From: an uncultured Gammaproteobacteria bacterium
Lineage (GTDB): Bacteria > Pseudomonadota > Gammaproteobacteria > PS1 > Pseudothioglobaceae
DNA: 64,000 nucleotides
Direction of reading: 5' to 3'
NCBI GenBank assembly: GCA_902512485.1
Contig: CABXJL010000001.1
Coordinates: 5,703-69,702 of the forward strand
Part shown: in pieces, positions 30,650 to 54,660 of the stretch
Numbering within the stretch: the first letter of the stretch is position 1
Layout of the letters: every line of letters begins with the position of its first letter
Notes under the pieces: generated by a model
What the model was told of the DNA's origin: nothing
Database searches by the model: none
The model's input: only the letters and a program-made list of their open reading frames with translations
Program-made: the position numbers and the translations under genes

Positions 30650-31180
30650 ATGAGCGAAAATACTATCAAAATTGGATTTCTCACTATTTCAGATAGGGCT
30701 TCTCGTGGCGTTTATGAAGATATTAGCGGTCCTGCGATGCAAGAGTGGATTTCAAAGGCAGTAACAAACCCCTATGAGACAGTTTCAAGAATCATTGAAG
30801 ATGAGCAGCCTGTAATCGAAAAAACCCTTATCGAAATGAGTGATACTCTTGGCTGCAATGTAATTCTTACCACTGGTGGAACTGGTCCAACTACCAGAGA
30901 TGTAACGCCTGAGGCTACCCAATCTGTTTGTGAAAGAATCTTTGATGGTTTTGCCGAGCAAATGAGAAAAGTGTCTCTTCGCACTGTACCGACTGCCATT
31001 CTATCTCGTCAAATTGCTGGAACTAGAGGCAATAGTCTAATTATTAACCTGCCAGGAAAGCCTGTGGCTATTGCTGTATGTCTTAGTGCAGTGTTCTTGG
31101 CAGTGCCTAAATGCCTAGAGTTACTAGATAATTCAAAGTTGCAAATAAATAGAGATTTTGTCGAGAAAGATTTTAGTTAG
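30650..31180 (+). CDS. mog: Molybdopterin adenylyltransferase
   Basis: SDRASRGVYEDISGP, TTGGTGP..RDVTPEAT, AILSRQ, NLPGKP. Confidence 0.95.
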   Translation: MSENTIKIGFLTISDRASRGVYEDISGPAMQEWISKAVTNPYETVSRIIEDEQPVIEKTLIEMSDTLGCNVILTTGGTGPTTRDVTPEATQSVCERIFDGFAEQMRKVSLRTVPTAILSRQIAGTRGNSLIINLPGKPVAIAVCLSAVFLAVPKCLELLDNSKLQINRDFVEKDFS

Positions 31181-31200
31181 AGTTTTTCTCTAAATTATAA

Positions 31201-31295
31201 GCGCAGCATAAGGAGTGTCTTGATTGCTTCAGCAATGAGAAAATAACCATAAAATCCAAATTACATTTGATGTGTGAGGGAGGGTTTATTAATGT
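31201..31295 (+). repeat. Island-boundary repeat, copy 1 (intact)
   Basis: 31201-31276 aligns with 54206-54281 (GTCTTGATTGCTTCAGCAATRAGAAAATAACCA...TTTGATGTGTG). 31268-31295 aligns with 54634-54660 (TGATGTGTGAGGGAGGG(T)TTATTAATGT). Confidence 0.85.
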
Positions 31296-31471
31296 AGTGG
31301 CAAAACTATCTTTACAATAGTGCCTTTTTTAGAGGATTCAATCAACAAAGACCCATCATGAAGTTCAATAATTTTTTTGGCGATTGCTAGCCCAAGTCCT
31401 GAGCCAATATCTGGGACATCGCTGCCTCGAGTAAACCTGTCGAATAGTTTTGGTATCTTGCAATCATCAAT
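31289..31471 (-). pseudogene. C-terminal remnant of a sensor histidine kinase (HATPase_c)
   Basis: Hand translation: IDDCKIPKLFDRFTRGSDVPDIGSGLGLAIAKKIIELHDGSLLIESSKKGTIVKIVLPLH* (F box and G2 box). In-frame stop just upstream, no start codon or N-terminal domains. Confidence 0.8.
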
Positions 31472-31558
31472 AACACAGGCAGGAGAATTGCCTTAATCAG
31501 TAAAAAAATCACTTTAATTAGAATGACTTATAAAGGAGTCGATTGCAAGATGCCAAAA

Positions 31559-31966
31559 CTATCCATAATGATTCATTAAATCAGCAATTCTCTTTAAAAA
31601 AATTGCGTGTTCACAAGCTTCCTCTGATGAATAAACTTCGTCCAGCATTTCTACCGGCTTTCCACGAATTCCAGATGCAATACCTATCTTGTATTGCTCA
31701 AACATACGGATACAAACACTAACATACTTTCCAGCCATAGGAGCCCTTCTCATCTTGTCTAGTATCGTTCTAAGTTCATGGCTATGCTCAACTGCTGCGC
31801 GTCCATTAGTTGGTGCGTTACCAACTGGACTATTTCTATGTTCAGCAATTAAACGACGACGAGATTCATCGTCGAATAACAGTGGCATCACATACGTTCT
31901 AGTAATATAGTCATCAGTTTCAGTATGTGATACATTCTCTATAACACCTTTAGTTTTATCTAACAT
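31559..31966 (-). CDS. dmfA1: N,N-dimethylformamidase small subunit homologue
   Basis: IAEHRNSPVG...HSHEL...RAPMAGKY...YSSEEACEHAIFLKRIADL parallels the Paracoccus DMFase small subunit as recalled (EEHAANPFG...QPTFGKY...TEEEAMHAVFLRRIED). Adjacent to the large subunit. Confidence 0.8.
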   Translation of the reverse strand: MLDKTKGVIENVSHTETDDYITRTYVMPLLFDDESRRRLIAEHRNSPVGNAPTNGRAAVEHSHELRTILDKMRRAPMAGKYVSVCIRMFEQYKIGIASGIRGKPVEMLDEVYSSEEACEHAIFLKRIADLMNHYG

Positions 31967-31994
31967 TATTTAATCCTCATTATTTCATTTATTA

Positions 31995-32363
31995 TTAGTG
32001 GTTACGACAAGGTACTGATTCTCCACGCTCTTCTTTCAAGCGAACAGCCTCTGCCTGAGCTTCTTCAGTTGTGTTAAAAACTTTATCTTCAAATAATATA
32101 AGTGGCTTAGCTCTATCAGCATTTAACTGTCCAACACACCATTCCTTTCCTTCAACGGTACAAACCACCACATAAGCTCCCGCAATTGGTCCGTAGCGCC
32201 TATTATTTAGCGTAAATAAACACTTCGCCAAATCATTGACTTTATCCTCATCAAGAGTACTAATAACAGATTCCTCTAAATCATTAAAGGGTTTTGTACT
32301 TGTACCAAGAACAGATTTCCCTGTTGGTGGATCCATCATGTCTGTATGTTTATTAATAGTCAT
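31995..32363 (-). CDS. Second, divergent DMFase small-subunit-like protein
   Basis: RRYGPIAGAYVVVCTVEGKEWCVGQLNADRAKPLILFEDKVFNTTEEA aligns with RRAPMAGKYVSVCIRMFEQYKIGIASGIRGKPVEMLDEVYSSEEA of the neighbouring gene. RBS GGAGG. Confidence 0.6.
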   Translation of the reverse strand: MTINKHTDMMDPPTGKSVLGTSTKPFNDLEESVISTLDEDKVNDLAKCLFTLNNRRYGPIAGAYVVVCTVEGKEWCVGQLNADRAKPLILFEDKVFNTTEEAQAEAVRLKEERGESVPCRNH

Positions 32364-32385
32364 TTTAAATTTCCTCCATTTTCTA

Positions 32386-34764
32386 TTATGGCAATGGATC
32401 CTCTTTTAGGAAACCTCTAATTGCATTTTCTGTAATTCGAGAAACATTGTTGTTGTAATTGTTATGAGAAAGACTTCCACACCAAGATAGAGAACCAGGC
32501 GCAAATACTGCGCCACCATTATCTGTCTTGTAATAAATCATATCTGCCCTTACCATAGGGTTTTCTGTACCACCTCCATGGTAACCGCGAACAGAAAAGT
32601 GAATTTCTTCATTAACTTGCAACATTAAATTGGTATGACCTTCTGAGTGAGCTAATAAGTATGCATCGTGAGGGGTGCCAAACTCTATATCATAACGGTC
32701 CAGTTCCAAACCTGCTGCGCCACCACCAACTAGACCAAAGTCACCAATCTTCTCACCATTTCCAACACCTTCCATAATCCAAGCTGTTTCAGGTCTTTCG
32801 CTGTCCTTATCTCGAACATAGTAGGAAGAAACATCAAATCCATACGCAGTAAAAGTTAATCCACATAGTTTGCTTGGTATTCTTCCTCTAGCTCTCCACA
32901 TGCCACCAAATTTACCATCAAAGGCATTGTTATATTCACCAGGGTTTGCTGTCCAAGCTCTTGTTCCAGCTTCACCTTTACGAACCTCTATAATGTTTGA
33001 ATTGTCTGGGTGGTATTCACTACACCAGTAAAAACCGTTAGCACCCAAATAAATCCATCTTCCACCATCTTGTTGATATTTTTCATATGCTGCAAACATT
33101 TTTTCTGAAGTATATTCTGGGTGACTCCCTGTCAATACAGTTTGATATTTATTTAATAAACCTACACCTTCTCTATTTAAATCTTCATCAGTATGAATAT
33201 CAAAATCAAAGTTTTTTTCTTCCAACCAATCTATAAGGTGTAGATCACCGTTAAGCTGCCAAAGTGATGGCGATAACCAGTGACGATATTTTGGTCGCAT
33301 ATTTAATATTGGTCTCAGCCTTGATGAATAACAAACACCACTTCCATCTGAATGTAACGAATAGGTCGACAAACCATACTCTCTATGCTCATTTAAGTAC
33401 AAATCAGCTGCAGTCATAACTGGCACTTTCCCTGCCAATAATTCTGCAACAACACAGTTTGTACATAAATTATCGTTTGAATATGCCATATAGGCATTTG
33501 TTGGAAGAATAAATGCTAGTTTCGAAGTTGTTGTACCTCTTGGAGGACGAACAACGAAAGGTATATAATCTTCAGTTTCAGGAGAATCCTCGCCTCCAAT
33601 TCTTAGACGTGCAGCATAAATACCGCTTTTTAAGTTATCTGGAATTTTTAATTCAAAATCAACTTCCCAACGAGCATCATCAATATCATCATCATGGAAA
33701 TGAATAGCTCCATATTCTTCTGGTTTGTGATGATAGACAATCTCATCCCCCGTCCAGTTAAAACCTGTCATACCGCGAACTGGCATATTAACGATAAAGC
33801 CATCCAATCGAGTTGTCGAGGTATCAACAATAAAAGTTGAAGCTATATTATTTGAAATGTTTGCATGAAAATCCCAAGCACCTACAACATCGTCTCTTAA
33901 TCCTGCTTGACAACTCTTATATCCTCGAGCTAAAGACTCAATCTCAGCCTTACTTAAGGCTCTTCTAGACAATCTTGGTCGATCAATTTTTCCATTATAG
34001 GTATGAACTTGTTCAGGTAATTCGATTGGTTCAGCTGCTTCCTTAAAATGACCACCAAAAATGTGCCTTCCAGATCTTTCATGTTTTGTGCTAGCAGCCA
34101 TCAAAAATGGTGCGTCATTAATACCAGGCTTTAAACTATTGATTGATTCGACTACAGCAGTAGTTTCCTCAGATGGATGCAATATACCCTGACCAAGACC
34201 TCCATTAGTAGAAGTTACAACGGGCTCTTGATATAAGGTTACTTTACCTGTTCTTGAATCGTAACTAACAGCAGCGAGATACCAAACTTTACGTAAAAGT
34301 TTTTTATCGCTTGAAAGCTTCATAACTTGACCACTACCGTCACCTATTTCTACTGTCAAACAGTTATTCTCATCAATAAACAGTCCATATCCACTTTTCG
34401 TTTCTTCAACCCATTTAGTTAGAATTCCTTGACGCCCTTTTTGCGGTGTACCAAGTCCTTCAATCGGAGTTGTAGGAAAGATATAACATTGAAGTGTAAA
34501 ACTCTCTACATTTAGGCGATCATCTTGGGGAACAACGATGTAGGAACCACCGTGTATTCTTTGATTTCTCCCTGGATAATTTTTGTTACATTCAGCTTGA
34601 ACCTCTTCTTCCTTGTAACCAGGCCCTTCAGGGTTTGTATCTCCATGTATTAAACGAACAATTTGAGTTTCATATACTTCGTTTTCTTCAGAGTTAATAT
34701 AAAATTGTATGTTATCCCCAGGACAAACAGAGTATTTGTCGCTATAACCAGTAATTCTTAACAT
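32386..34764 (-). CDS. dmfA2: N,N-dimethylformamidase large (catalytic) subunit homologue
   Basis: VRLIHGDTNPEGPGYKEE, LamG-like region, YMAYSN, YGLSTY, DLHLIDWL, LTGSHPEY, GLVGGGAAGLELDR, VRADM, WCGSL..NNVS. The 2-Tyr/1-Glu iron ligands and the adjacent His appear conserved. Confidence 0.92.
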   Translation of the reverse strand: MLRITGYSDKYSVCPGDNIQFYINSEENEVYETQIVRLIHGDTNPEGPGYKEEEVQAECNKNYPGRNQRIHGGSYIVVPQDDRLNVESFTLQCYIFPTTPIEGLGTPQKGRQGILTKWVEETKSGYGLFIDENNCLTVEIGDGSGQVMKLSSDKKLLRKVWYLAAVSYDSRTGKVTLYQEPVVTSTNGGLGQGILHPSEETTAVVESINSLKPGINDAPFLMAASTKHERSGRHIFGGHFKEAAEPIELPEQVHTYNGKIDRPRLSRRALSKAEIESLARGYKSCQAGLRDDVVGAWDFHANISNNIASTFIVDTSTTRLDGFIVNMPVRGMTGFNWTGDEIVYHHKPEEYGAIHFHDDDIDDARWEVDFELKIPDNLKSGIYAARLRIGGEDSPETEDYIPFVVRPPRGTTTSKLAFILPTNAYMAYSNDNLCTNCVVAELLAGKVPVMTAADLYLNEHREYGLSTYSLHSDGSGVCYSSRLRPILNMRPKYRHWLSPSLWQLNGDLHLIDWLEEKNFDFDIHTDEDLNREGVGLLNKYQTVLTGSHPEYTSEKMFAAYEKYQQDGGRWIYLGANGFYWCSEYHPDNSNIIEVRKGEAGTRAWTANPGEYNNAFDGKFGGMWRARGRIPSKLCGLTFTAYGFDVSSYYVRDKDSERPETAWIMEGVGNGEKIGDFGLVGGGAAGLELDRYDIEFGTPHDAYLLAHSEGHTNLMLQVNEEIHFSVRGYHGGGTENPMVRADMIYYKTDNGGAVFAPGSLSWCGSLSHNNYNNNVSRITENAIRGFLKEDPLP

Positions 34765-34803
34765 AATATTTCCTTAATTTTTATTAATTAAAAGTTAAAT
34801 TGA

Positions 34804-36798
34804 TTAGGACTCTTCGCCCTCGATATCTTCATCCTTTTTTTCGCCTTTTCTATAATCACCAAGTAGGTTTTTAATATTGCCAATCTCATTTGGAGACATA
34901 CCAATTTCGTCAAGAAGATGATCAATAAACGGTACTTGTGCTCTGTAGCGCATAGCTGCATTCACTATATTGTCAGGCAAACCCGCCCCACCATTAGCAG
35001 GCCCTACAAAATCAGGATTAGTACTATTTGAGTTAAATCCTGGCATACCATTTAATTCGTAAATTTTTATATCATCAATATTTTCCATTGGCTTGACTGC
35101 CTCTCGAATAATTGAATCAAGATTTCTCGCTAACTCCATTCTAAGATCACTTTGCCTACTCTCATCACTACGAGCGTTTTCTGCTTCATTAAGCATCAAC
35201 TTACCAGCGGCATCAATCTCATAGCGTAGTTTGCTAGCCAGAGAAGCATGTTTTTCGGCTTGCTCCCTCTCTTGGGCAGCCTCTTTTTCAGCTCTAGCAA
35301 GGGTAGTAATTTGAATTGCCTCACTTTCCCCTTCCATTTCTGCACTTATTAATTGCAACTTCTTGTTACGTTCTGCAATCTCGACTTCTTGTGCTGAAAG
35401 AACTTGTTCTTCTGCAACAACTACTTCGGCTCTAGCTTGTTCTTTACTTTCCACTGCATTTAATACTTCTACAGTTTTAGCTATAACCTCAAGTTCACGA
35501 TTCTTCTCTTCTATTTCAAGATTTTTTCTCTTGTGAATTTCTGAAGCTTGAGCTTGTTGATCGTTTTCTATTCGCGTTATTTCTATGATTCGTTGCTGTT
35601 CTATCTCTAATTTTTTCACCTCTTCTTGGGCCTTTATTTGAGCCTCTTCAGCTTCTACATAACGATCTGACTCTACCTTAAGAACCTCAGCCTTTTGTTT
35701 AGCTCTTTGAGATGATATCTCTTCTTCCTGTTTGAGCCTTGCAAACTCATTTTCCTTTTTAATTTCCAAGGATCTAATTTCAGCCTCAAGATTCTTTTCT
35801 TTAATATCAATCTCTGTTTGCCTCTCAATCTCATTTCGAAGTTTTTTACGCTCCTCAATCTGGAGAGTTAACTCATGTTCACGCAATGAGCGTTCAACTT
35901 CAATAGTATCTTGTTGTTGGATGCGAGCCTTCTCAACATCTTCTGCAGATTGAATTCTTGCTTCTTCAGCTAAACGCTCCTGTCTTGCAGTCTCAACAGC
36001 CATTTCGGTAGTTTCTTTATCTCGCTGCTTAGCAATTTCGCGTTCTTGTAGCAACCTGGAGAATTCCCTCGCCTGATCAATTTCAAGTGCTTTTTGTTCT
36101 GCCTCTAAATTCTTAGTTCTAATCCTTATAGCAGTATCTTGCTCAATATCATTACGTTTTTTCTTTCCAGCCTCAATTTGCTCTGTTAATTGCGTAAGAC
36201 CCTCAGCGTCAAACGCATTAGATGGGTCAAATACCTCTAGGCCGGCTTGATCAACGCTGGTCAATGACACAGCCTCAAGTTCAAGACCTGTTGAACCTAA
36301 AGATTCAGCAACAATTCCCTTAACCGCTTTGATATATTCACCACGTTTTTCTTGAATCTCTTCCATAGACATCTTCGCAGCAACAATACCCAGCGCATCT
36401 ACAAAACGACCTTGCACTAAATCTCTTAAACTTTCAGGCTCCATCGTTCTTTTACCTAGTGTCCCCGCTGCAATTGATACAGCCTCTTTTGATGGTGTAA
36501 CGCGGACATAAAATTCTGCAACTATTTCAACACGCATACGATTTTTTGTAATAAAAGCTTTATCGCCGCCTCGTTTTACCTCTATGCGTAAGGTACGCAT
36601 CCCAACAGCAGTTATATTGTGAATGATTGGCAATACAAAAGCACCGCCACTAATCACAACTTTTTCGCCACGTAGTCCAGTTCTTACAAAAGAAACTTCT
36701 TTAGATGATCTTCGATACAACCAATGCAGCAAATATACAAAAATCGCTATTGCTAATGCTGTCAATATAATAGTTGCAATGATATCTGCGCCAGTCAT
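34804..36798 (-). CDS. Flotillin-family (SPFH/Band 7) protein, YqiK-like
   Basis: N-terminal TM; FVRTGLRGEKVVISGGAFVLPIIH; LELEAVSLT; NAFDAEGL; long E/A/K/Q-rich coiled coil; flotillin C-terminus (IIREAVKPMENIDDIKI). Confidence 0.92.
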   Translation of the reverse strand: MTGADIIATIILTALAIAIFVYLLHWLYRRSSKEVSFVRTGLRGEKVVISGGAFVLPIIHNITAVGMRTLRIEVKRGGDKAFITKNRMRVEIVAEFYVRVTPSKEAVSIAAGTLGKRTMEPESLRDLVQGRFVDALGIVAAKMSMEEIQEKRGEYIKAVKGIVAESLGSTGLELEAVSLTSVDQAGLEVFDPSNAFDAEGLTQLTEQIEAGKKKRNDIEQDTAIRIRTKNLEAEQKALEIDQAREFSRLLQEREIAKQRDKETTEMAVETARQERLAEEARIQSAEDVEKARIQQQDTIEVERSLREHELTLQIEERKKLRNEIERQTEIDIKEKNLEAEIRSLEIKKENEFARLKQEEEISSQRAKQKAEVLKVESDRYVEAEEAQIKAQEEVKKLEIEQQRIIEITRIENDQQAQASEIHKRKNLEIEEKNRELEVIAKTVEVLNAVESKEQARAEVVVAEEQVLSAQEVEIAERNKKLQLISAEMEGESEAIQITTLARAEKEAAQEREQAEKHASLASKLRYEIDAAGKLMLNEAENARSDESRQSDLRMELARNLDSIIREAVKPMENIDDIKIYELNGMPGFNSNSTNPDFVGPANGGAGLPDNIVNAAMRYRAQVPFIDHLLDEIGMSPNEIGNIKNLLGDYRKGEKKDEDIEGEES

Positions 36799-36823
36799 AA
36801 TTCTTTCTCCTTAATTTATATAC

Positions 36824-37537
36824 CTATTTTTTATTGTCTTCTATTCTTGCCTGGGTATCATTCATAGCAGCTCTATATATGACAAACCCAAAAATTATTT
36901 TGTTTAAAAAGTCAGTTAGGTTGTAAATAATATTAAGACTATTTACATCTACTCCACCACCAAGATTATTAATAAAATAGCCAAGTGGGTAAATCGCCCA
37001 ACCAATAGTAAGGATCAATCTCAATCCATTAAATGCTTGATGTGATGCCTCATTGCCACTCTCTATGTTGGAGCGGCTTGCTTCACCCATATAAAGTTCA
37101 CCAAGAATATAAAGCCAACCAACGACACCAATAATAAAACCTAATGTTGCACTCATATAGCCCGCAGCACCTAAAAATTCACCTATCACCATTACCAGAG
37201 TTCCAATTAGTAATCGCCAAAATAGTGCCGATGAGACTTTTGTGACTGCAGTCAAAATTACATAAAACAGTACAACTTGCATAGTATGTGTAAGTATCCA
37301 ATCTAAATATCTAAGGATAATTGGAGCCGTCCCCGTTTCAACCCACATTATTTTGACATAGTGGTAGAAAACAGCTGACACCAACATCGTAACGCCTAAT
37401 AGTGTCATTGTCGTGTGCCATCTATCATGAACCTTGGATCTTTCAAGTAGAAAGAAGATCGTAGCACCTATCATTGCCATGGATAAAAGCCAAAATGTGC
37501 CGCCTACAATGTCAGTTGGTAATAATGTAGTGTTCAT
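36824..37537 (-). CDS. Microbial rhodopsin of the proteorhodopsin clade, DTL motif (flotillin-associated rhodopsin, FArhodopsin)
   Basis: 7 TM helices; helix C RYLDWILTHTMQVVLF (D-T-L at GPR 97/101/108); helix F GWAIYP; helix G DFLNKIIFG with the retinal-binding Lys. Lies 25 bp upstream of flotillin. Confidence 0.92.
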   Translation of the reverse strand: MNTTLLPTDIVGGTFWLLSMAMIGATIFFLLERSKVHDRWHTTMTLLGVTMLVSAVFYHYVKIMWVETGTAPIILRYLDWILTHTMQVVLFYVILTAVTKVSSALFWRLLIGTLVMVIGEFLGAAGYMSATLGFIIGVVGWLYILGELYMGEASRSNIESGNEASHQAFNGLRLILTIGWAIYPLGYFINNLGGGVDVNSLNIIYNLTDFLNKIIFGFVIYRAAMNDTQARIEDNKK

Positions 37538-37653
37538 AGAAATCCCTGGTTATAAATTCTGTATTAATTAATTAATTATTTATTTATTCGTTCATTCAAA
37601 AAACTTTGCCAATATTTAGCTCTATTAAATAGTCTCTATTAAAGGCGTTTATA

Positions 37654-37736
37654 GAGTTTGGACAACCGAAAGAAAGTTTTTTAGTAAATAATTGATCTAA
37701 ATACTAACAATCTTTTAATTTCAGTTATCCAAACTC
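37654..37736 (-). other. Long mRNA stem-loop between the SBP gene and the rhodopsin
   Basis: Minus strand: GAGUUUGGAUAACUGAAA pairs with UUUCGGUUGUCCAAACUC (both DNA mismatches are G-U), plus an inner AAAG/UUAGUA...UACUAA/CUUU stem. Confidence 0.7.
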
Positions 37737-37758
37737 AATTAAAACAACTCTTAATTAA

Positions 37759-38931
37759 TTAAGAGTCTGGATCATATTCCTCTGGATCAGCAGGTCTTAA
37801 GAAGAAGTTGTCAACGTAGTCCTTACCGCCCCAAACTTCAACACCTGGGTTGTACCACAAGGTAGAGTTACGATCACAATCAGTTCCCATCATTGCTTCA
37901 ACATCGTCATATCCAATTGTTAAAGGTGGTACTAAGATTGATTGAATCTTAGGTCCTTGACCCTGTAAAGTACGCATCATGATGTTCCAACCAAGCTCAA
38001 TATCATCACCTGGAGGCCATGTCTGAATAGCACCACTAATATAATCAGGGTTATTACGCCAGTAACATAGAGCACCAATTTCACCACCAATTGACATTGG
38101 AGGAATGTCTCGTCCTGACTGTAATACTGCTGCTAAAACACCAGTTTCACCAGAAGACTGAACTGCAATTCCATCAAGCTGTCCAGGGTGTGTAGCTAAC
38201 CACTTCTGAGTCTCAGCTTGACCAACTTGTGATGTCCACATATGCGCAATCTGACCTGTAACTTTAATATCAGGATATCTAGATAATCCATCTAAAACAC
38301 CAGCATTTTGTGAATCTGATGCTGAAAATCCAGGAATACCTTCAATTACAAGAACATTACCCTTTCCATCAATCTCTTCAGCCATCCATGTTCCAACATC
38401 AAATCCAGCCTGATGGTAGTTCACTGATGAATTTATTGAAAGTGGTGAAGTTGTATATCCAGTAAATGAAAATACTGGAACACCTCTATCAAAGGCATAC
38501 TTAATTGCTTGATTCAATGCAGTCGGGTTGGAGCAACAAATAATTATTGCATCCACACCTTGATCAACGAGTTGTCTGATCTGTTGAATCTGTAATGCAT
38601 CCTTAAGGTTTGACTGTGTAACAATGATGTCATTAAGCAAACCGAGCTCTTGCCATTTTGGTTTTATGACATCCATCAAACGTGCCATTGCACCTTTACG
38701 CCAGGTATTTCCAGCATAAGTACTAGCATAACCTACAGTCCATGGAGGTGAACGTTCACTTTTCCAATCTCTAAACGCACTATCATCAAGTGGCTGAATT
38801 GGATCCATCAAATCCATGTTATAAACCCTATCCCGAATATCCTGTGGGATTTCATCAAGTCCTGCAATGGCCATCGACGTAAATCCGAATGACAACATAC
38901 AAGCCATGACTAGTTTTAATAGTTTTTTCAT
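37759..38931 (-). CDS. Periplasmic binding protein type I (sugar-ABC/RbsB-like fold)
   Basis: Signal peptide; GNTWR, QIQQIRQLVDQGVDAIII, GKGNVLVIEGIPG. RBS AGGAG. Confidence 0.88.
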   Translation of the reverse strand: MKKLLKLVMACMLSFGFTSMAIAGLDEIPQDIRDRVYNMDLMDPIQPLDDSAFRDWKSERSPPWTVGYASTYAGNTWRKGAMARLMDVIKPKWQELGLLNDIIVTQSNLKDALQIQQIRQLVDQGVDAIIICCSNPTALNQAIKYAFDRGVPVFSFTGYTTSPLSINSSVNYHQAGFDVGTWMAEEIDGKGNVLVIEGIPGFSASDSQNAGVLDGLSRYPDIKVTGQIAHMWTSQVGQAETQKWLATHPGQLDGIAVQSSGETGVLAAVLQSGRDIPPMSIGGEIGALCYWRNNPDYISGAIQTWPPGDDIELGWNIMMRTLQGQGPKIQSILVPPLTIGYDDVEAMMGTDCDRNSTLWYNPGVEVWGGKDYVDNFFLRPADPEEYDPDS

Positions 38932-39042
38932 TTTGATTTGTCTCCTATTTATTTATAGTCAAGCGTTATTGCTTGTTCTATTCACCTTAGAAAATGACTT
39001 GTTTTATTACGGTTCCGCACATTTTAAACATAATTACATAGC

Positions 39043-39143
39043 CTAAAGTATGTCTAAGTATATCACAATGCATACATTAGTCAACTAAAGTATGTATTTA
39101 TTTTATAATAATATTATAAGTATGTATTTAGTGTAAAGTATGC
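39043..39143. promoter_or_regulatory. Array of AAGTATG boxes in the divergent promoter (candidate response-regulator sites)
   Basis: AAGTATG at 39046, 39088, 39118 and 39136; AAGTATA at 39056; inverted CATAC at 39071. Confidence 0.6.
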
Positions 39144-39217
39144 AGCCCTATTAATATATTTGCTTAAAAAATACTGTACAATCAAGTGTTATCTTTAACA
39201 AAAATTCAACTATTTGA

Positions 39218-39913
39218 GTGATAAAAGCTATGGAAAACAAAAAGGATAGTAGACCAATAAAATATAAAATTGTTATAGCCGATGACCACGCCCTAGTTAG
39301 AGGTGGTTTAGAATTAGTCGTTAAAATGGCTGTACCCAATGCCGAAATATTTCAAGCAAATAGTTTTGATGAGACAATAAATGTACTTAATTCAAATTTC
39401 TCAATTGATTTAGTTTTACTTGATTTAATGATGCCTGGAATGTGGCATGACAGTATTCAAAGTATTACTTCACAATTTCCTGATGTACCCATAGTAATCG
39501 TTTCTGTAAAAGAGGACTTTGATTCAATTCATAACTCAATTTCTTTAGGGGCTTCTGGATTTATACCTAAAACTTCTGCACCGGAAGTGACTATAAGTGC
39601 TATCCAGCTTGTTCTGGCGGGTGGTGTCTACATACCGCCACATGTTTTGAAACCAAGAGCCGATCCTATTCAACATGATGAAAAATTAGATGATTTGGAT
39701 AGTGTTAAACGCTTGTCTAAAAGGCAAAAAGAAGTTCTTGGTAATATCAGTCTCGGTAGATCGAACCAGGATATTGCTGACGAATTAGGTTTGACTATTC
39801 CAACAATTAAAATGCATGTTTCAGCCATTTTTAAAAAACTAAATGTTAAAAATAGAACTGAAGCTGTATCTATTTATTCTAATTTAGAAAAAGTTTCAGA
39901 TTTACACTCCTAG
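39218..39913 (+). CDS. NarL/FixJ-family response regulator (REC + LuxR HTH)
   Basis: IADDHALVR, LLDLMMP, GASGFIPK, LSKRQKEVL...SNQDIA...TIKMHVSAIFKKL. Confidence 0.93.
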   Translation: MIKAMENKKDSRPIKYKIVIADDHALVRGGLELVVKMAVPNAEIFQANSFDETINVLNSNFSIDLVLLDLMMPGMWHDSIQSITSQFPDVPIVIVSVKEDFDSIHNSISLGASGFIPKTSAPEVTISAIQLVLAGGVYIPPHVLKPRADPIQHDEKLDDLDSVKRLSKRQKEVLGNISLGRSNQDIADELGLTIPTIKMHVSAIFKKLNVKNRTEAVSIYSNLEKVSDLHS

Positions 39914-39925
39914 ATTTATGTAAGT

Positions 39926-41203
39926 TTGCTACTCATTATTATGGCAACTAAACCTTTACAATTACTTTCATACATGTTCAATATTTTTTTTTCTATCAAC
40001 TATAAATTGTGCCATGAATATCTAAAAAAAATACTCATTCCATTTTTTTTAGTCTTACTTCTTAATATTCCTAGCCTTAGCCTGAATATTGCTCATGCAG
40101 ATGAAGAAAACTACTGGAAGCAAAATGTTAACATTTTTAATTTTTCGTGTACGGACGGTGATATAGATTGCTGGATTGATGATAGAAATGCACTAGAAAA
40201 ATTACCGCTAGTAGAATATGCGCCTTTGAAAGCCTCTGAAGTTAATAAAAAACATCATATATGCGTCTCATTTCCACATCTCAAAGACTCTTATTGGGTT
40301 GGAGTGGCTTATGGAATTATTTCTGAAGGAAGACGCCTAGGACAAAAAATAACATTATTCGAAGCTGGAGGATATACAAATCTGGCAACACAATTAAACC
40401 AAGTTGATGACTGTTTGACTAATAATGGTGAAGCTTTAATTATTGGACCAATTTCAAGTAACGGCAACGCAAGACAGATTGACTTGATCAGGGCTAAAGG
40501 AATCCCAGTAGTTGTCCTTGTCACTGGAATTAATACAGAAGTAGATGCAAACTCGCTTCAAAGTTTTGTCAATATGGGTTATACCTCTTGTAAATGGGTT
40601 GCAGACCAAGAAAAACTTAATGATGGAAAGACCAACATTGTATGGTTTCCAGGACCGCCTGGAGCTGGCTGGTCTATAGCCTCTCACCAAGGATGTCTTA
40701 GTGCTCTAGAGAGAACTAATATTAGAATATTAGAAACTAATTGGGGTGATACTGGAAAAGCAATTCAATTACAATTAGTTGAGGAAACACTACTGAATCA
40801 TGCCTCAGGCCCTGAACCCGATTTTAAATACATTGTAGGAACGGGCACCACAATTGAAGCTGCTGTTGGGGCTCTTAGGGCCAGAAAGCTTGGTAATAAA
40901 ATCAAACTGGTATCCACATATTACACACCTGGAATAGATATGTTTATAAAACGCGGTCTAATTTCAATGGCACCTTCGGACCAAATGATTTCACAAGCAA
41001 CAATTGCTGTCGACCAAGCAGTAAGACTTCTTGAAGGAAAAAACATGGCAACCTCAGGAAGACCGGAATTTAATAACACTGGTCGTGTTACAGAACATGT
41101 TCAACAACAAATATTGATTGTAACTCCTGATATATCAGATCAATTCAACTCATCTACAACACTAGCACCAAAAGGCTGGTTTCCAATATTTTCAGTGGAT
41201 TAA
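39926..41203 (+). CDS. torT: TorT-like periplasmic sensor/binding protein
   Basis: ICVSFPHLKDSYW...YG...LFEAGGYTNLATQLNQVDDC, PGPPGAGW, WGDTGK and DQAVRLLEG match TorT-family signatures. True start uncertain (39941 or 39974 possible). Confidence 0.75.
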   Translation: MLLIIMATKPLQLLSYMFNIFFSINYKLCHEYLKKILIPFFLVLLLNIPSLSLNIAHADEENYWKQNVNIFNFSCTDGDIDCWIDDRNALEKLPLVEYAPLKASEVNKKHHICVSFPHLKDSYWVGVAYGIISEGRRLGQKITLFEAGGYTNLATQLNQVDDCLTNNGEALIIGPISSNGNARQIDLIRAKGIPVVVLVTGINTEVDANSLQSFVNMGYTSCKWVADQEKLNDGKTNIVWFPGPPGAGWSIASHQGCLSALERTNIRILETNWGDTGKAIQLQLVEETLLNHASGPEPDFKYIVGTGTTIEAAVGALRARKLGNKIKLVSTYYTPGIDMFIKRGLISMAPSDQMISQATIAVDQAVRLLEGKNMATSGRPEFNNTGRVTEHVQQQILIVTPDISDQFNSSTTLAPKGWFPIFSVD

Positions 41204-41233: not shown

Positions 41234-42787
41234 ATGTCACAACCCAATATCCCTTTGTTGAAGCTTCAGACTATTTCTAAACAGTTTTTTGGTTCCGCTG
41301 TTCTTGAAAATATAAATTTTGACCTCTATCCTGGAGAAGTTCATGCGATCTTTGGACAAAATGGTGCTGGCAAATCTACCTTAATTCAAATTGTTACTGG
41401 AGACATTCAACCATCAAGTGGCAAAATAATTCTTAATAATGAGGAATTGAAGATTCATTCTGTACATAAAGCCAGAGAGTTAGGCATTAGTGCGGTCTTT
41501 CAAGAATTTTCGTTAGTTCCACAACTCACAGTTGAAGAAAATTTATTCCTGGGATCAAACACCTCAAAAGGTTTTTTTCTTGACAAAAAAAAGTTGCACA
41601 AAATAGCATGCCAAACCTTGGAACAACTTGAATTTTCTATCAAAGCTGAAGAGAAGATAATCAATTTATCACATGCAGAAAAAAGAATGGTTGAGATTGC
41701 TAAAGCTTTTCATACTAAACCATCAATTATGTTACTAGACGAACCAACAGCTTCATTGGCTGAAAATGAAACAAATCAGCTTTTTTCAATGATAGAAATT
41801 CTAAAAAAAGAAGGTATTGGGATTATCTATATTACACATCGAATGAATGAGATTTATAAAATTGCTGATCGTATTACAATTCTTCAAGATGGTCATGTTG
41901 TTAATACAGATCTGGTAACTAATATTAACGAACAAAAATTAGTAGAATTAGCAACCGGTCGAAATATTACCAGTTTTTTTCCAGAAATAAAAAAACAACC
42001 TGGCAAAAAACTACTTGACATAAAAAACTTGAATATAAGCAATAGTTTTATTCAAGATGTTTCAATGAATGTAAAGTCAGGAGAAGTTGTTGGCCTTGCA
42101 GGACTTGCTGGTTCAGGTAAGTCTGCAATTGGACGTGCTTGCTTTGGTATAAATAAAATTACAGCTGGCACAATTAGCTACTTGGATGATGTTATATATG
42201 ATAGTTCAAAACAAATTAATGATCTTACTCCACGATCAATGATTGATAGAGGAATGCTATATTTACCCTCTGATAGGAGGGCAGAAGGTCTTGTCATGGA
42301 ACAAAATATTAGAGAAAACATTTCTTTGCCTTCACTAGGTCTACCTAAATTTTCTAGTGGCTTTATTGTAAATAGAAAAATTGAAAAGGATATTGTAGAA
42401 AAAATCGGAGAACGCCTTAACTTTAACGCTCAAGGCATTGAAAACAAAATGGAACAACTCTCTGGCGGAACTCAGCAAAAGGTAATGCTTGCGAAAAGTT
42501 TTGCTCGTGATGTCCAACTTTTTATTCTGGATGAACCAACTGTCGGTGTTGATATTGGAACTCGTGTCGCAATTTACGAAATAATAAAAGAATTTTGTGA
42601 GTCTGGAGGAGCCGTAATGCTGATCTCTTCAGACCTCTCAGAATTAGTAAATTTATCACATAGAATTTACATTATTAGTGAAAAAAATGAGTGTGTTGAA
42701 TTCAATGCTGAAGATTGTAATGAACATCTCATACAATATTACTTTCATAACTCTAGAGTTGAAACAGCTCAAGCCTCCTTAGCTTGA
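41234..42787 (+). CDS. Sugar-type (CUT2) ABC ATPase with two NBDs
   Basis: GQNGAGKST, LDEPT, YITHR; second NBD LSGGTQQKV, LDEPTVGVD, ISSDL. Confidence 0.92.
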   Translation: MSQPNIPLLKLQTISKQFFGSAVLENINFDLYPGEVHAIFGQNGAGKSTLIQIVTGDIQPSSGKIILNNEELKIHSVHKARELGISAVFQEFSLVPQLTVEENLFLGSNTSKGFFLDKKKLHKIACQTLEQLEFSIKAEEKIINLSHAEKRMVEIAKAFHTKPSIMLLDEPTASLAENETNQLFSMIEILKKEGIGIIYITHRMNEIYKIADRITILQDGHVVNTDLVTNINEQKLVELATGRNITSFFPEIKKQPGKKLLDIKNLNISNSFIQDVSMNVKSGEVVGLAGLAGSGKSAIGRACFGINKITAGTISYLDDVIYDSSKQINDLTPRSMIDRGMLYLPSDRRAEGLVMEQNIRENISLPSLGLPKFSSGFIVNRKIEKDIVEKIGERLNFNAQGIENKMEQLSGGTQQKVMLAKSFARDVQLFILDEPTVGVDIGTRVAIYEIIKEFCESGGAVMLISSDLSELVNLSHRIYIISEKNECVEFNAEDCNEHLIQYYFHNSRVETAQASLA

Positions 42788-44838
42788 ATTAAGTGCGAAA
42801 GCATAGCTCGAAACTTTGCCGGCTGAATTGGTTTTAGTAACACCGGAAAACCCTGATCAATAATACTTTGTACGTGATTTCGTTCTACATCACCTGTCAT
42901 AATGACACATGGAATTGAAGCCTGTAATTTTTCTTGAATTAAATAAGTAATATCAATACCAGAAGCATCACCAGGTAAACGATTATCTGCCAAAATAATA
43001 TCTGGATTATCGTATGGATTTTTTTTAATTAAATTCATAACTTCATCTTTATTCCTTGCAGTTTTGACCTTGCAGCCCCATGATTCTAAGAGCTGCTTAG
43101 TTGCCTTTAAAACATCGATATCATCTTCAACTAAAAGAATATTTATCCCTGATAAGTTCATAATATTCAGAAAAATTTCAGATTGATTTTTATCAGCTTT
43201 ATTTTCAGCAAGATCAACACTAACAGAGAAGCAAGAGCCATTTCCAAGACTTGATTTACTATCAATCGTATGTTCTAAACTATCAGCTAAACGTTTTGCG
43301 AGAGCGAGACCAAGGCCTAGACCTTTGCCTCTATCACGCTCCTTATTTTCAACTTGATAAAAGTCCTCATAAATCAGTGACATCTGATCATCAGAAATTC
43401 CACAACCAGTATCCCAAACCTCAATTGAAACCTTGTCGCCCCTCTTTCTGCAACCTATCAATACCGAACCTTTATTAGTATAGCGAATAGCGTTAGACAT
43501 AAAATTTCCCAATATACGTTCCAGCAAAGCTGGATCACTTCTAACATAAAGACTTGATGGAACAATTCTAAAATCTAATTCTTTGTCTTTGGCAAGAGGC
43601 AGGAATGACTGAAAGATACTAATCAAAATGTTATTCACTGAAAAAATTTCATGTCTTGGTTTTATTGCACCTACCTCTAATTCCGACACATCAAGAAGAG
43701 CATTTAACAACCTTGCTGTTGAGATTGAGACAGAGTTTATATCTTCAATAATGCGAAGTATTTCCTTATCCTTAACTTTCGATTGCAATGCAGCAATATA
43801 CATTTGCATCGCATTTAAAGGTTGACGCAAGTCATGGCTCGCTGAAGCTAAGAAAACTGACTTGGCTTTGTTTGCTCTTTCGGCGTCAAATTTAGCTTTC
43901 TGTAGACCCTCTCCTTGCTCCCACAAATCTTTTTTGAGTCTATTAAAGCTGCGCCCCATCCTGCCTAGTTCGTCCTCTCTTAATAGGATGTTTTGTTCAT
44001 CTTCAATTTCCTCTACCTTATGCAAAGGGGTATATCTATTGATTGAGTCTGTTAGTAATTGCAGGGGTTTTGAAATATTCATTCTAACAATGACTAACAC
44101 CATCGTGACAACAAATAGCAAAGCTATAAGGGAGGTTATAACGATATAACTAAGAGCAATACGCTCTACATAGGTTATTTTTGATTTGGAAGCAAAAATT
44201 ATTTCTTCTAATTCAGTATTTACTTTGCTAGCTTGCAATAGTAGAAGATCTTCAGTAGAGGAGATCTCCTTAAGATCGCTCATATCAATGGTGAGAATTC
44301 TAATATTTTTTTCTGCAAATAAATTATTAACTACCAACCGATAATATATTTGGTTTATCTTTCTTAGTTCATAAAGCTCAGAAAGTAATTTTTCCTGATG
44401 CGATGAAATTATATCTATATCAGCTTTTGCTTCAGAATTTACTATCTTTATAAAAGACTCTGTATCAGCTATAGATTTCTTCAGTTTTTGATTAGCTATT
44501 AAAAATTCTGTTCGAATAGTATCGTTTGATAATAATTGATTGTATTTATCATAAAAACTCGTTTTTTCAGAGTCTTGGTTTACTATTTGACTAACAGTAA
44601 TAAATAGTTCTTTTACGCTTATACTTTGCTTATAAACATTTTCATCGATTGAGTTGACTGATTCAATTAAAGGGATAGTAATTGATGACATTTGTTTCGT
44701 CTCATCACCTACCGTATATACTTGAGTAAAGGCAACAAGCGCAACTGCAATAAAACCAAAAACCTCAATGACCAATAGAGCTAATATTTTCTGATTAAGG
44801 GATAGTTTATTAAAAAAATTTTGATTGGCTGTTTCCAT
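42769..44838 (-). CDS. Hybrid sensor histidine kinase (2 TM, periplasmic helical domain, HAMP, HisKA, HATPase, REC)
   Basis: SHDLRQPL, NFMSNAIRYT, DTGCGI, GLGLGL; receiver VEDD...ADNRL...KP; HAMP DELGRMGRSFN. Confidence 0.93.
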   Translation of the reverse strand: METANQNFFNKLSLNQKILALLVIEVFGFIAVALVAFTQVYTVGDETKQMSSITIPLIESVNSIDENVYKQSISVKELFITVSQIVNQDSEKTSFYDKYNQLLSNDTIRTEFLIANQKLKKSIADTESFIKIVNSEAKADIDIISSHQEKLLSELYELRKINQIYYRLVVNNLFAEKNIRILTIDMSDLKEISSTEDLLLLQASKVNTELEEIIFASKSKITYVERIALSYIVITSLIALLFVVTMVLVIVRMNISKPLQLLTDSINRYTPLHKVEEIEDEQNILLREDELGRMGRSFNRLKKDLWEQGEGLQKAKFDAERANKAKSVFLASASHDLRQPLNAMQMYIAALQSKVKDKEILRIIEDINSVSISTARLLNALLDVSELEVGAIKPRHEIFSVNNILISIFQSFLPLAKDKELDFRIVPSSLYVRSDPALLERILGNFMSNAIRYTNKGSVLIGCRKRGDKVSIEVWDTGCGISDDQMSLIYEDFYQVENKERDRGKGLGLGLALAKRLADSLEHTIDSKSSLGNGSCFSVSVDLAENKADKNQSEIFLNIMNLSGINILLVEDDIDVLKATKQLLESWGCKVKTARNKDEVMNLIKKNPYDNPDIILADNRLPGDASGIDITYLIQEKLQASIPCVIMTGDVERNHVQSIIDQGFPVLLKPIQPAKFRAMLSHLIQAKEA

Positions 44839-54205: not shown

Positions 54206-54281
54206 GCGTAGTAGAAAGAGAGTCTTGATTGCTTCAGCAATAAGAAAATAACCACAAAGTCCAAATTTCGTTTGATGTGTG
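54206..54281 (+). repeat. Island-boundary repeat, copy 2 (left part)
   Basis: Aligns without gaps to 31201-31276 with about 10 substitutions. Contains the hairpin TCTT(G)ATTGCT-TC-AGCAATAAGA. Confidence 0.85.
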
Positions 54282-54342
54282 GGGATAGAGTTTTTTTTGA
54301 GCTATAATTAAATTTCTTTAATAATATTTCTAGGAGTGAAAA

Positions 54343-54636
54343 ATGATTTATGTAATTGTTAAGTGTCCGTGTCATGAAGAAGGAGCATCGAAGCTTATTG
54401 ATTGGGCACACAGTGACGATGGATTGTCATTGACAAGGACACACAAGGGATTTAAGCATATCGAACTTTTGGCTGGTGAAGATAACAAGACAATGTGGTT
54501 ATACGAACAATGGGAGACAAAAGAGGACCATCAAGCATATCTAAATTTTCGAATGGAAAATGGATTTGAAAACTTTATGGGAGAAATATTGGAAGGTGAA
54601 TTGTCAATCAATTATCTTTCCAACTGCGGAGCATGA
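54343..54636 (+). CDS. Antibiotic biosynthesis monooxygenase (ABM) / putative quinol monooxygenase
   Basis: 97 aa, LYEQWETKEDHQAYLNFR. RBS AGGAG. Confidence 0.8.
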   Translation: MIYVIVKCPCHEEGASKLIDWAHSDDGLSLTRTHKGFKHIELLAGEDNKTMWLYEQWETKEDHQAYLNFRMENGFENFMGEILEGELSINYLSNCGA

Positions 54637-54660
54637 TGTGTGAGGGAGGGTTATTAATGT
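54634..54660 (+). repeat. Island-boundary repeat, copy 2 (right part, separated by the ABM gene)
   Basis: TGATGTGTGAGGGAGGGTTATTAATGT matches 31268-31295 with one indel. Confidence 0.8.

Follow-up and report, generated by a model that had tools for sequence, protein, structure and literature searches.

What does a rhodopsin do that retains the Schiff-base lysine but lacks the residues of a proton pump? The question is raised by a gene at positions 36824-37537 of a 64,000-nucleotide stretch of DNA (hereafter, the window) from an uncultured gammaproteobacterium of the family Pseudothioglobaceae. The original prediction, made from the sequence alone, had proposed that the gene encodes a rhodopsin that is not a normal proton pump, with an altered retinal pocket that might accommodate a small polar ligand or a non-retinal aldehyde.

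Identity of the rhodopsin gene

The gene is a single intact open reading frame (Table 1). Its product matches the Pfam family Bac_rhodopsin (E 9e-31), and the top PDB match obtained with phmmer was 9r21, a 'flotillin-associated rhodopsin' (E 1.8e-138, residues 1-237), thus bearing out that the gene encodes a rhodopsin. The second match was 9r23, the H84V/E120G mutant of the same protein (PsFAR), while true proteorhodopsins (PRs) scored only E 1e-65 and weaker. An AlphaFold (AF2) model built from an alignment of 63 homologues (pLDDT 89.8) shows seven transmembrane (TM) helices and, together with the Pfam match, assigns the protein to the seven-helix fold of the proteorhodopsin family. The model superimposes on 9r21 chain A with a TM score of 0.95 and 88% sequence identity; identity to the pump PsPR is 47%. 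NCBIfam held no useful model for the protein or for the small open reading frames.

Flotillin-associated rhodopsins, also known as FArhodopsins (FARs), were named as a clade by Haro-Moreno et al. (2023, PMC10308929), who described the motifs DTT in Pelagibacterales, DNI in HIMB59 and DTL in Pseudothioglobus. In the window protein, the DTE motif of the pumps is replaced by DTL (D79, T83, L90). A maximum likelihood tree of 76 sequences, with 8 PRs of the genus as the sole PR outgroup, set every FAR-type sequence apart from these PRs (support 100/100) and placed the window protein within the genus FAR subclade. Its identity to the genus PRs (44-49%) agrees with membership in a separate FAR clade. 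A flotillin gene lies on the same strand, 25 nt downstream. Furthermore, the family is marked by a bulky residue at the site of the retinal polyene and by Glu, or else a compensating Trp, at the site of the ring; the window protein has H84 and E120 there. The original prediction did not recognise that this family had already been named and solved.

Other assignments were considered. The attributes of a proteorhodopsin pump are a carboxylate donor (E108 in GPR numbering), the helix-B His (H75) and an open pocket (V102/G138), and the window protein has L90, F57, H84 and E120 instead. A sensory rhodopsin is expected to carry a retinal chromophore and to have a cognate transducer gene nearby; here the pocket is plugged, and no transducer-type (MCP/HAMP) domain was detected in the neighbouring island genes scanned. 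Xenorhodopsin, prompted by the DTL motif, was rejected because the helix-G Asp (D209) is kept. The window gene is a typical representative of the published FArhodopsins, of the Pseudothioglobus DTL type, and a paralogue of proteorhodopsin. The family, its linkage to flotillin, the two plug residues and the absence of retinal binding have all been published, and the object belongs to a kind already described and structurally solved.

Residues were called from an HMMER alignment to proteorhodopsin 4jq6, which had no gaps, and from a MAFFT alignment with sequences of the genus (8 PRs and 5 additional FARs), GPR numbering being local numbering plus 18 throughout. Both alignments confirmed every residue call of the original prediction. 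R76, D79, T83, D209 and K213 are kept (GPR R94, D97, T101, D227 and K231). The changes are F57 for the helix-B His (H75), H84-T85 for Val-Pro (V102-P103), Q87 at the tuning site (GPR 105), L90 for the Glu donor (E108) and E120 for Gly (G138). All 8 genus PRs carry A54/H57/V84/P85/L87/E90/G120, and the six genus FARs carry S54/F57/H84/(T/S)85/Q87/L90/E120, with D209 and K213 identical in 6/6. Because the pattern is uniform across genus FARs as opposed to genus PRs, it is, as judged from the alignments, a fixed family signature rather than an outcome of chance.

A survey of the 116 closest homologues (50-97% identity) showed a bulky residue at position 84 in 110/116 (H in 61, F in 27, R in 16 and Q in 6), and Glu (98) or Gln (10) at position 120 in 108/116. 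K213 was present in 115 of the 116, and K213, D79, D209 and R76 were each found in 114-116. Additional features of the survey were as follows. The helix-C Pro is retained in 101/116 homologues and the helix-B His in 80/116; loss of both (T/S85, F57) occurs only in a Pseudothioglobus-type subgroup that includes the window gene. Arg84 is always paired with Glu120 (16/16 homologues), which suggests a salt-bridged plug in such proteins. A few homologues combine Q84 or H84 with G120.

The retinal pocket

The structure and mutants of the Pseudothioglobus orthologue PsFAR have been described by Kovalev et al. (2025, bioRxiv 10.1101/2025.04.29.651185; later in Structure according to PMC12379486). PsFAR was colourless despite excess all-trans retinal, and its cryo-EM map at 2.5 Å showed a cofactor-free pentamer in which the side chain of H84 lies at the polyene position and that of E120 at the position of the beta-ionone ring, with K213 apparently hydrogen-bonded to S54, D79 and D209 (Kovalev et al. 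2025). Single mutations did not restore retinal binding; only the H84V/E120G double mutant bound retinal (498 nm), and its photocycle was almost bistable and devoid of proton transport (Kovalev et al. 2025). The failure of the double mutant to pump is consistent with the missing proton donor.

The window FAR resembles PsFAR (PDB 9r21) over its full, equal length, at the identity and TM score given above; both belong to the same genus-level clade and have a flotillin neighbour, and residues S54, F57, R76, D79, T83, H84, Q87, E120, D209 and K213 are identical. The two proteins differ by 28 substitutions, none of them at plug residues; L90, H59 and T85 in the window FAR correspond to M90, Y59 and S85 in PsFAR. 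All retinal-exclusion residues of PsFAR are thus present except at the donor site, where Leu and Met are both non-protonatable. S54 is found in the window FAR and in all genus FARs. Residue 59 is encoded by 37361-37363, and is His in 3/6 genus FARs and Tyr in the other 3/6.

By analogy with PsFAR, the window FAR is predicted neither to bind retinal nor to pump, a transfer made by residue identity from measurements on a protein with 28 differences (M90 versus L90 included) that was produced in E. coli without flotillin. The view that the protein is not a normal proton pump thus gains support from the colourless PsFAR, its retinal-free map and the lack of proton transport in H84V/E120G, and the proposed alteration of the pocket is borne out by the occupation of polyene and ring space by H84 and E120 in PsFAR.

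Compared with proteorhodopsin pumps (PsPR 9r22, GPR 7b03, BPR 4jq6/4kly), the protein shares the fold, the counterion Asp pair, the Arg and the Schiff-base Lys. Unlike them, it has no carboxylate donor (L90), helix-B His (F57) or helix-C Pro (T85), and H84 and E120 occupy its pocket. Rhodopsin folds without a chromophore are also found in Rh-noK, in Lys-less haloarchaeal opsins and in Lys-less freshwater FARs; unlike these proteins, in which the Lys has been lost, the window FAR keeps the Lys and would exclude retinal sterically.

The original prediction had also pointed out the absence of blh and crt genes from the window. As regards crtB (PF00494), the absence extends to the entire assembly (996 kb, 54% complete) and to five genus genomes (G007, G020, G041, G003 and G024; three of them complete, including the PR-bearing G007 and G020), in a search whose control matched in 8/14 genomes. 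Since complete PR-bearing genomes also lack crtB, nothing about FAR can be read from the missing crt genes, and the observation carries little weight. The search for blh (PF15461) gave zero matches in the window's own assembly and in five relatives, but its control never matched either, so that it does not count as a validated negative. Judging from these gene contents, cells of the genus may rely on an external supply of retinal.

The flotillin gene pair and the accessory island

The flotillin encoded downstream of FAR has an N-terminal TM helix, an SPFH/Band_7 domain, a long coiled coil and a C-terminal Flot domain (Pfam matches: Flot, 4.7e-30; Band_7, 1.2e-13). Because a terminator scan detected no terminator-like site in the 25-nt spacer between the genes, co-transcription of FAR and flotillin is likely; a single transcript has been described for the pair (PMC10308929). 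A flotillin of this type was found in 9/43 genus genomes, and all nine have an adjoining FAR-class rhodopsin on the same contig. In all six diverse lineages fetched (59-82% identity), the flotillin gene comes immediately after FAR.

Residues 1-215 of the flotillin (36154-36798), which comprise the TM helix and the SPFH part, keep 99-100% identity over more than 120 distinct 90%-identity clusters, and the coiled coil is far less conserved. Complex prediction of FAR with flotillin residues 1-215 returned a score of 0.00 and no verdict from the tool, and weighs neither way. According to Kovalev et al. (2025), the FAR surface shows no obvious adaptation for flotillin.

The genes around the pair match the published description of the Pseudothioglobus FAR cluster, which includes a LuxR regulator, a hybrid kinase, an N,N-dimethylformamidase and a flotillin neighbour, along with the DTL motif and a Gln tuning site (PMC10308929). 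The window FAR shares with that clade the DTL motif, the Gln tuning site, the same-strand flotillin downstream and an island with LuxR, hybrid kinase and dimethylformamidase (DMFase) genes. The DMFase large-subunit family is also found near FAR-flotillin in loci L015, L017 and L022. ABC transporter genes are located on the far side of FAR, with the LuxR-type regulator and the hybrid kinase, and the solute-binding protein gene upstream of FAR has the same arrangement in L015 and L016. Large ABC permeases are usually found in front of the pair in the six lineages fetched, whose neighbourhoods also contain DMFase genes, a sodium:solute symporter and an alpha/beta hydrolase.

Two different DMF_alpha-type subunits, of 122 and 135 aa, are encoded behind one DMFase large subunit (31559-32363). 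The smaller had no match in the local Pfam copy; the larger is 57% identical to an L022 product that carries PF26354. Both small-subunit types recur beside FAR-flotillin in other lineages (L015, L017, L022).

Table 1. Location of the FAR gene, its neighbours and the island borders in the window
Feature	Coordinates	Strand	Basis
Left direct repeat copy, ~80 nt, at left island edge	31212..31295	+	Sequence comparison
DMFase small subunit homologue, 135 aa	31559..31966	-	6lvb_B (DMFase small subunit), E 5.8e-5
DMFase small-subunit-like protein (DMF_alpha type), 122 aa	31995..32363	-	79% identity to L015 product with PF26354 DMF_alpha
N,N-dimethylformamidase large-subunit-like protein, 792 aa	32386..34764	-	Pfam DMFA2_C, 4.2e-96
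Flotillin, 664 aa	34804..36798	-	Pfam
FAR stop-flotillin start spacer, 25 nt, with strong AAGGAGA ribosome-binding site	36799..36823	-	Sequence
FArhodopsin gene, 237 aa	36824..37537	-	DTL motif D79/T83/L90; plug H84 and E120; K213, S54, F57, Q87
AT-rich spacer upstream of FAR, 221 nt	37538..37758	-	No Rfam family, no strong promoter consensus
Periplasmic solute-binding protein, upstream of FAR, co-directional	37759..38931	-	Peripla_BP_4, 7.1e-36
LuxR-type response regulator	39218..39913	+	Domain scan
Hybrid histidine kinase	42769..44838	-	Domain scan
Right repeat copy (head 54218-54282, tail 54632-54660), split by 361-bp single-gene cassette	54218..54660	+	Sequence comparison

An Rfam scan of positions 31000-40000 gave no match, and a promoter scan did not score above shuffled sequences.

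The FAR-flotillin pair lies in an accessory island of about 23 kb, whose right border is only approximate. In the complete FAR-less genomes G007, G041 and G047, similarity to the window stops at ~31,160, and the complete FAR-bearing genome G020 is syntenic with the window from 31.5 to 54.1 kb (to 54,118). The direct repeat found at the island edges, with roughly 22.9 kb between its two copies, is multi-copy in genus genomes, with about a dozen copies at 69-102 kb in G047. The repeat copies and the split cassette suggest a variable region resembling a cassette array. A simple empty site was not found by the left flank in the three FAR-less complete genomes, where neither a repeat copy nor DNA or protein similarity was detected within 4 kb. 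According to a published long-read study, the entire FAR cluster has been deleted in a population of Pseudothioglobus.

Role of a retinal-free rhodopsin

The best explanation, which we hold with considerable confidence, is that the window gene encodes a retinal-free, non-pumping FArhodopsin that acts as a light-independent structural partner of flotillin; the role is the part that we infer. Structural partnership appears to be the likeliest role because the gene pairing is invariant and co-transcription is likely. FAR would be "blind", although its seven-helix fold and its Arg/Asp/Asp/Lys core are kept: H84 would fill the space of the polyene and E120 that of the beta-ionone ring, K213 would form no Schiff base but be fixed in place by S54, D79 and D209, and Leu would stand at the position of the cytoplasmic proton donor. 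Made presumably from one transcript with flotillin, FAR would be a light-independent structural membrane partner of the flotillin scaffold, probably as a pentamer. The two proteins might then organise a membrane microdomain that serves the ABC importer of the island and amide catabolism of the dimethylformamidase type. A purely structural role does not fully account for the fact that nearly all marine FARs have kept K213, D79 and D209.

A relevant issue is whether FAR works together with a true proteorhodopsin. PR was present in every FAR-bearing SAG studied by Haro-Moreno et al. (2023, PMC10308929). The window's own assembly (996 kb, 54% complete) departs from that description, as one rhodopsin only, and no companion PR, was found in it. 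Also at odds with the 2023 report are 5/9 FAR- and flotillin-bearing genomes of the genus (G000, G017, G024, G045 and G050), one of them 94% complete, in which no PR was found; the probability of such a count is ~0.011 if incompleteness alone hid PR. PR was detected in the other four (G003, G016, G020 and G042), and is not commoner in FAR-bearing (4/9) than in FAR-less genomes (5/19; Fisher p 0.41). PR itself is accessory in the genus. As these are mutually related draft genomes, and PR could sit in regions that assemble poorly, the counts provide a modest hint, not proof, that FAR may do without a companion proteorhodopsin.

The counts, along with the recurrence of DMFase and ABC genes near FAR-flotillin in distant lineages, hint at a bolder version of the structural partnership. 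In this version, FAR would be independent of both PR and light, and would be the dedicated core, or else a client, of a flotillin assembly organising the importer and the DMFase-type enzyme for the use of natural formamides or amides. We regard this proposal as tentative and rather unlikely.

The hypothesis put forward in the 2023 paper is that FAR is an accessory subunit of the proton pump, which would form hetero-oligomers or flotillin rafts with a true PR and would tune or stabilise pumping in dim light. The pentamers of FAR and PR are indeed alike (Kovalev et al. 2025), helices D-E are very similar in the alignment of genus FARs and genus PRs, and the constant presence of PR in the SAGs studied (PMC10308929) fits well. 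However, five of the nine FAR-bearing genus genomes lack a detectable PR, at the probability and with the caveat of related drafts given above, and PR is not commoner where FAR is present. We therefore consider an accessory role in pumping improbable.

Another possibility is the one contemplated in the original prediction, namely that FAR is a chemoreceptor-like seven-helix protein in which H84, E120 and the free Lys bind a polar ligand or a non-retinal aldehyde. Conservation of K213, D79, D209 and R76 in nearly all homologues (114-116/116) would be understandable on these grounds, and PsFAR does have small water-filled cavities near E120, a flexible residue in the map (Kovalev et al. 2025). 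Besides, the PsFAR structure was obtained from E. coli, a host that may lack a native ligand, and other stimuli or carotenoid derivatives have been mentioned as possible (PMC10308929). Against this, H84 is well ordered and hydrogen-bonded in PsFAR, and occupies the channel beside the Lys; the residual cavities are fragmented, and no extra density was reported (Kovalev et al. 2025). The Lys is missing from most freshwater FARs (PMC10308929), and the island genes scanned do not include a transducer-type gene. A ligand site made by His and Glu is thus unsupported, as these side chains behave as a plug in PsFAR, and we view such a receptor as very improbable.

That FAR might be a light-independent channel or transporter of amidase products or substrates such as amines and formate, for instance via the central pore of the pentamer, hardly deserves credence. 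In its favour, dimethylformamidase-type genes, ABC permeases and a sodium:solute symporter are consistently found with FAR, and the pore-lining residue Y59 of PsFAR is H59 in the window FAR; against it, the central opening of PsFAR is narrowed rather than widened, the cytoplasmic half of every protomer is hydrophobic (Kovalev et al. 2025), and the island already has dedicated transporters.

The discovery value of the window FAR is small, as the family has been published and a structure is available for an orthologue with 88% identity within the genus. The locus does add a clean FAR example, with the whole island on one contig. The question for the field is the role of a conserved, abundant, retinal-free rhodopsin beside flotillin in streamlined marine bacteria. 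If FAR does not need a companion PR, the hypothesis that it is a "helper of the pump" would be weakened.
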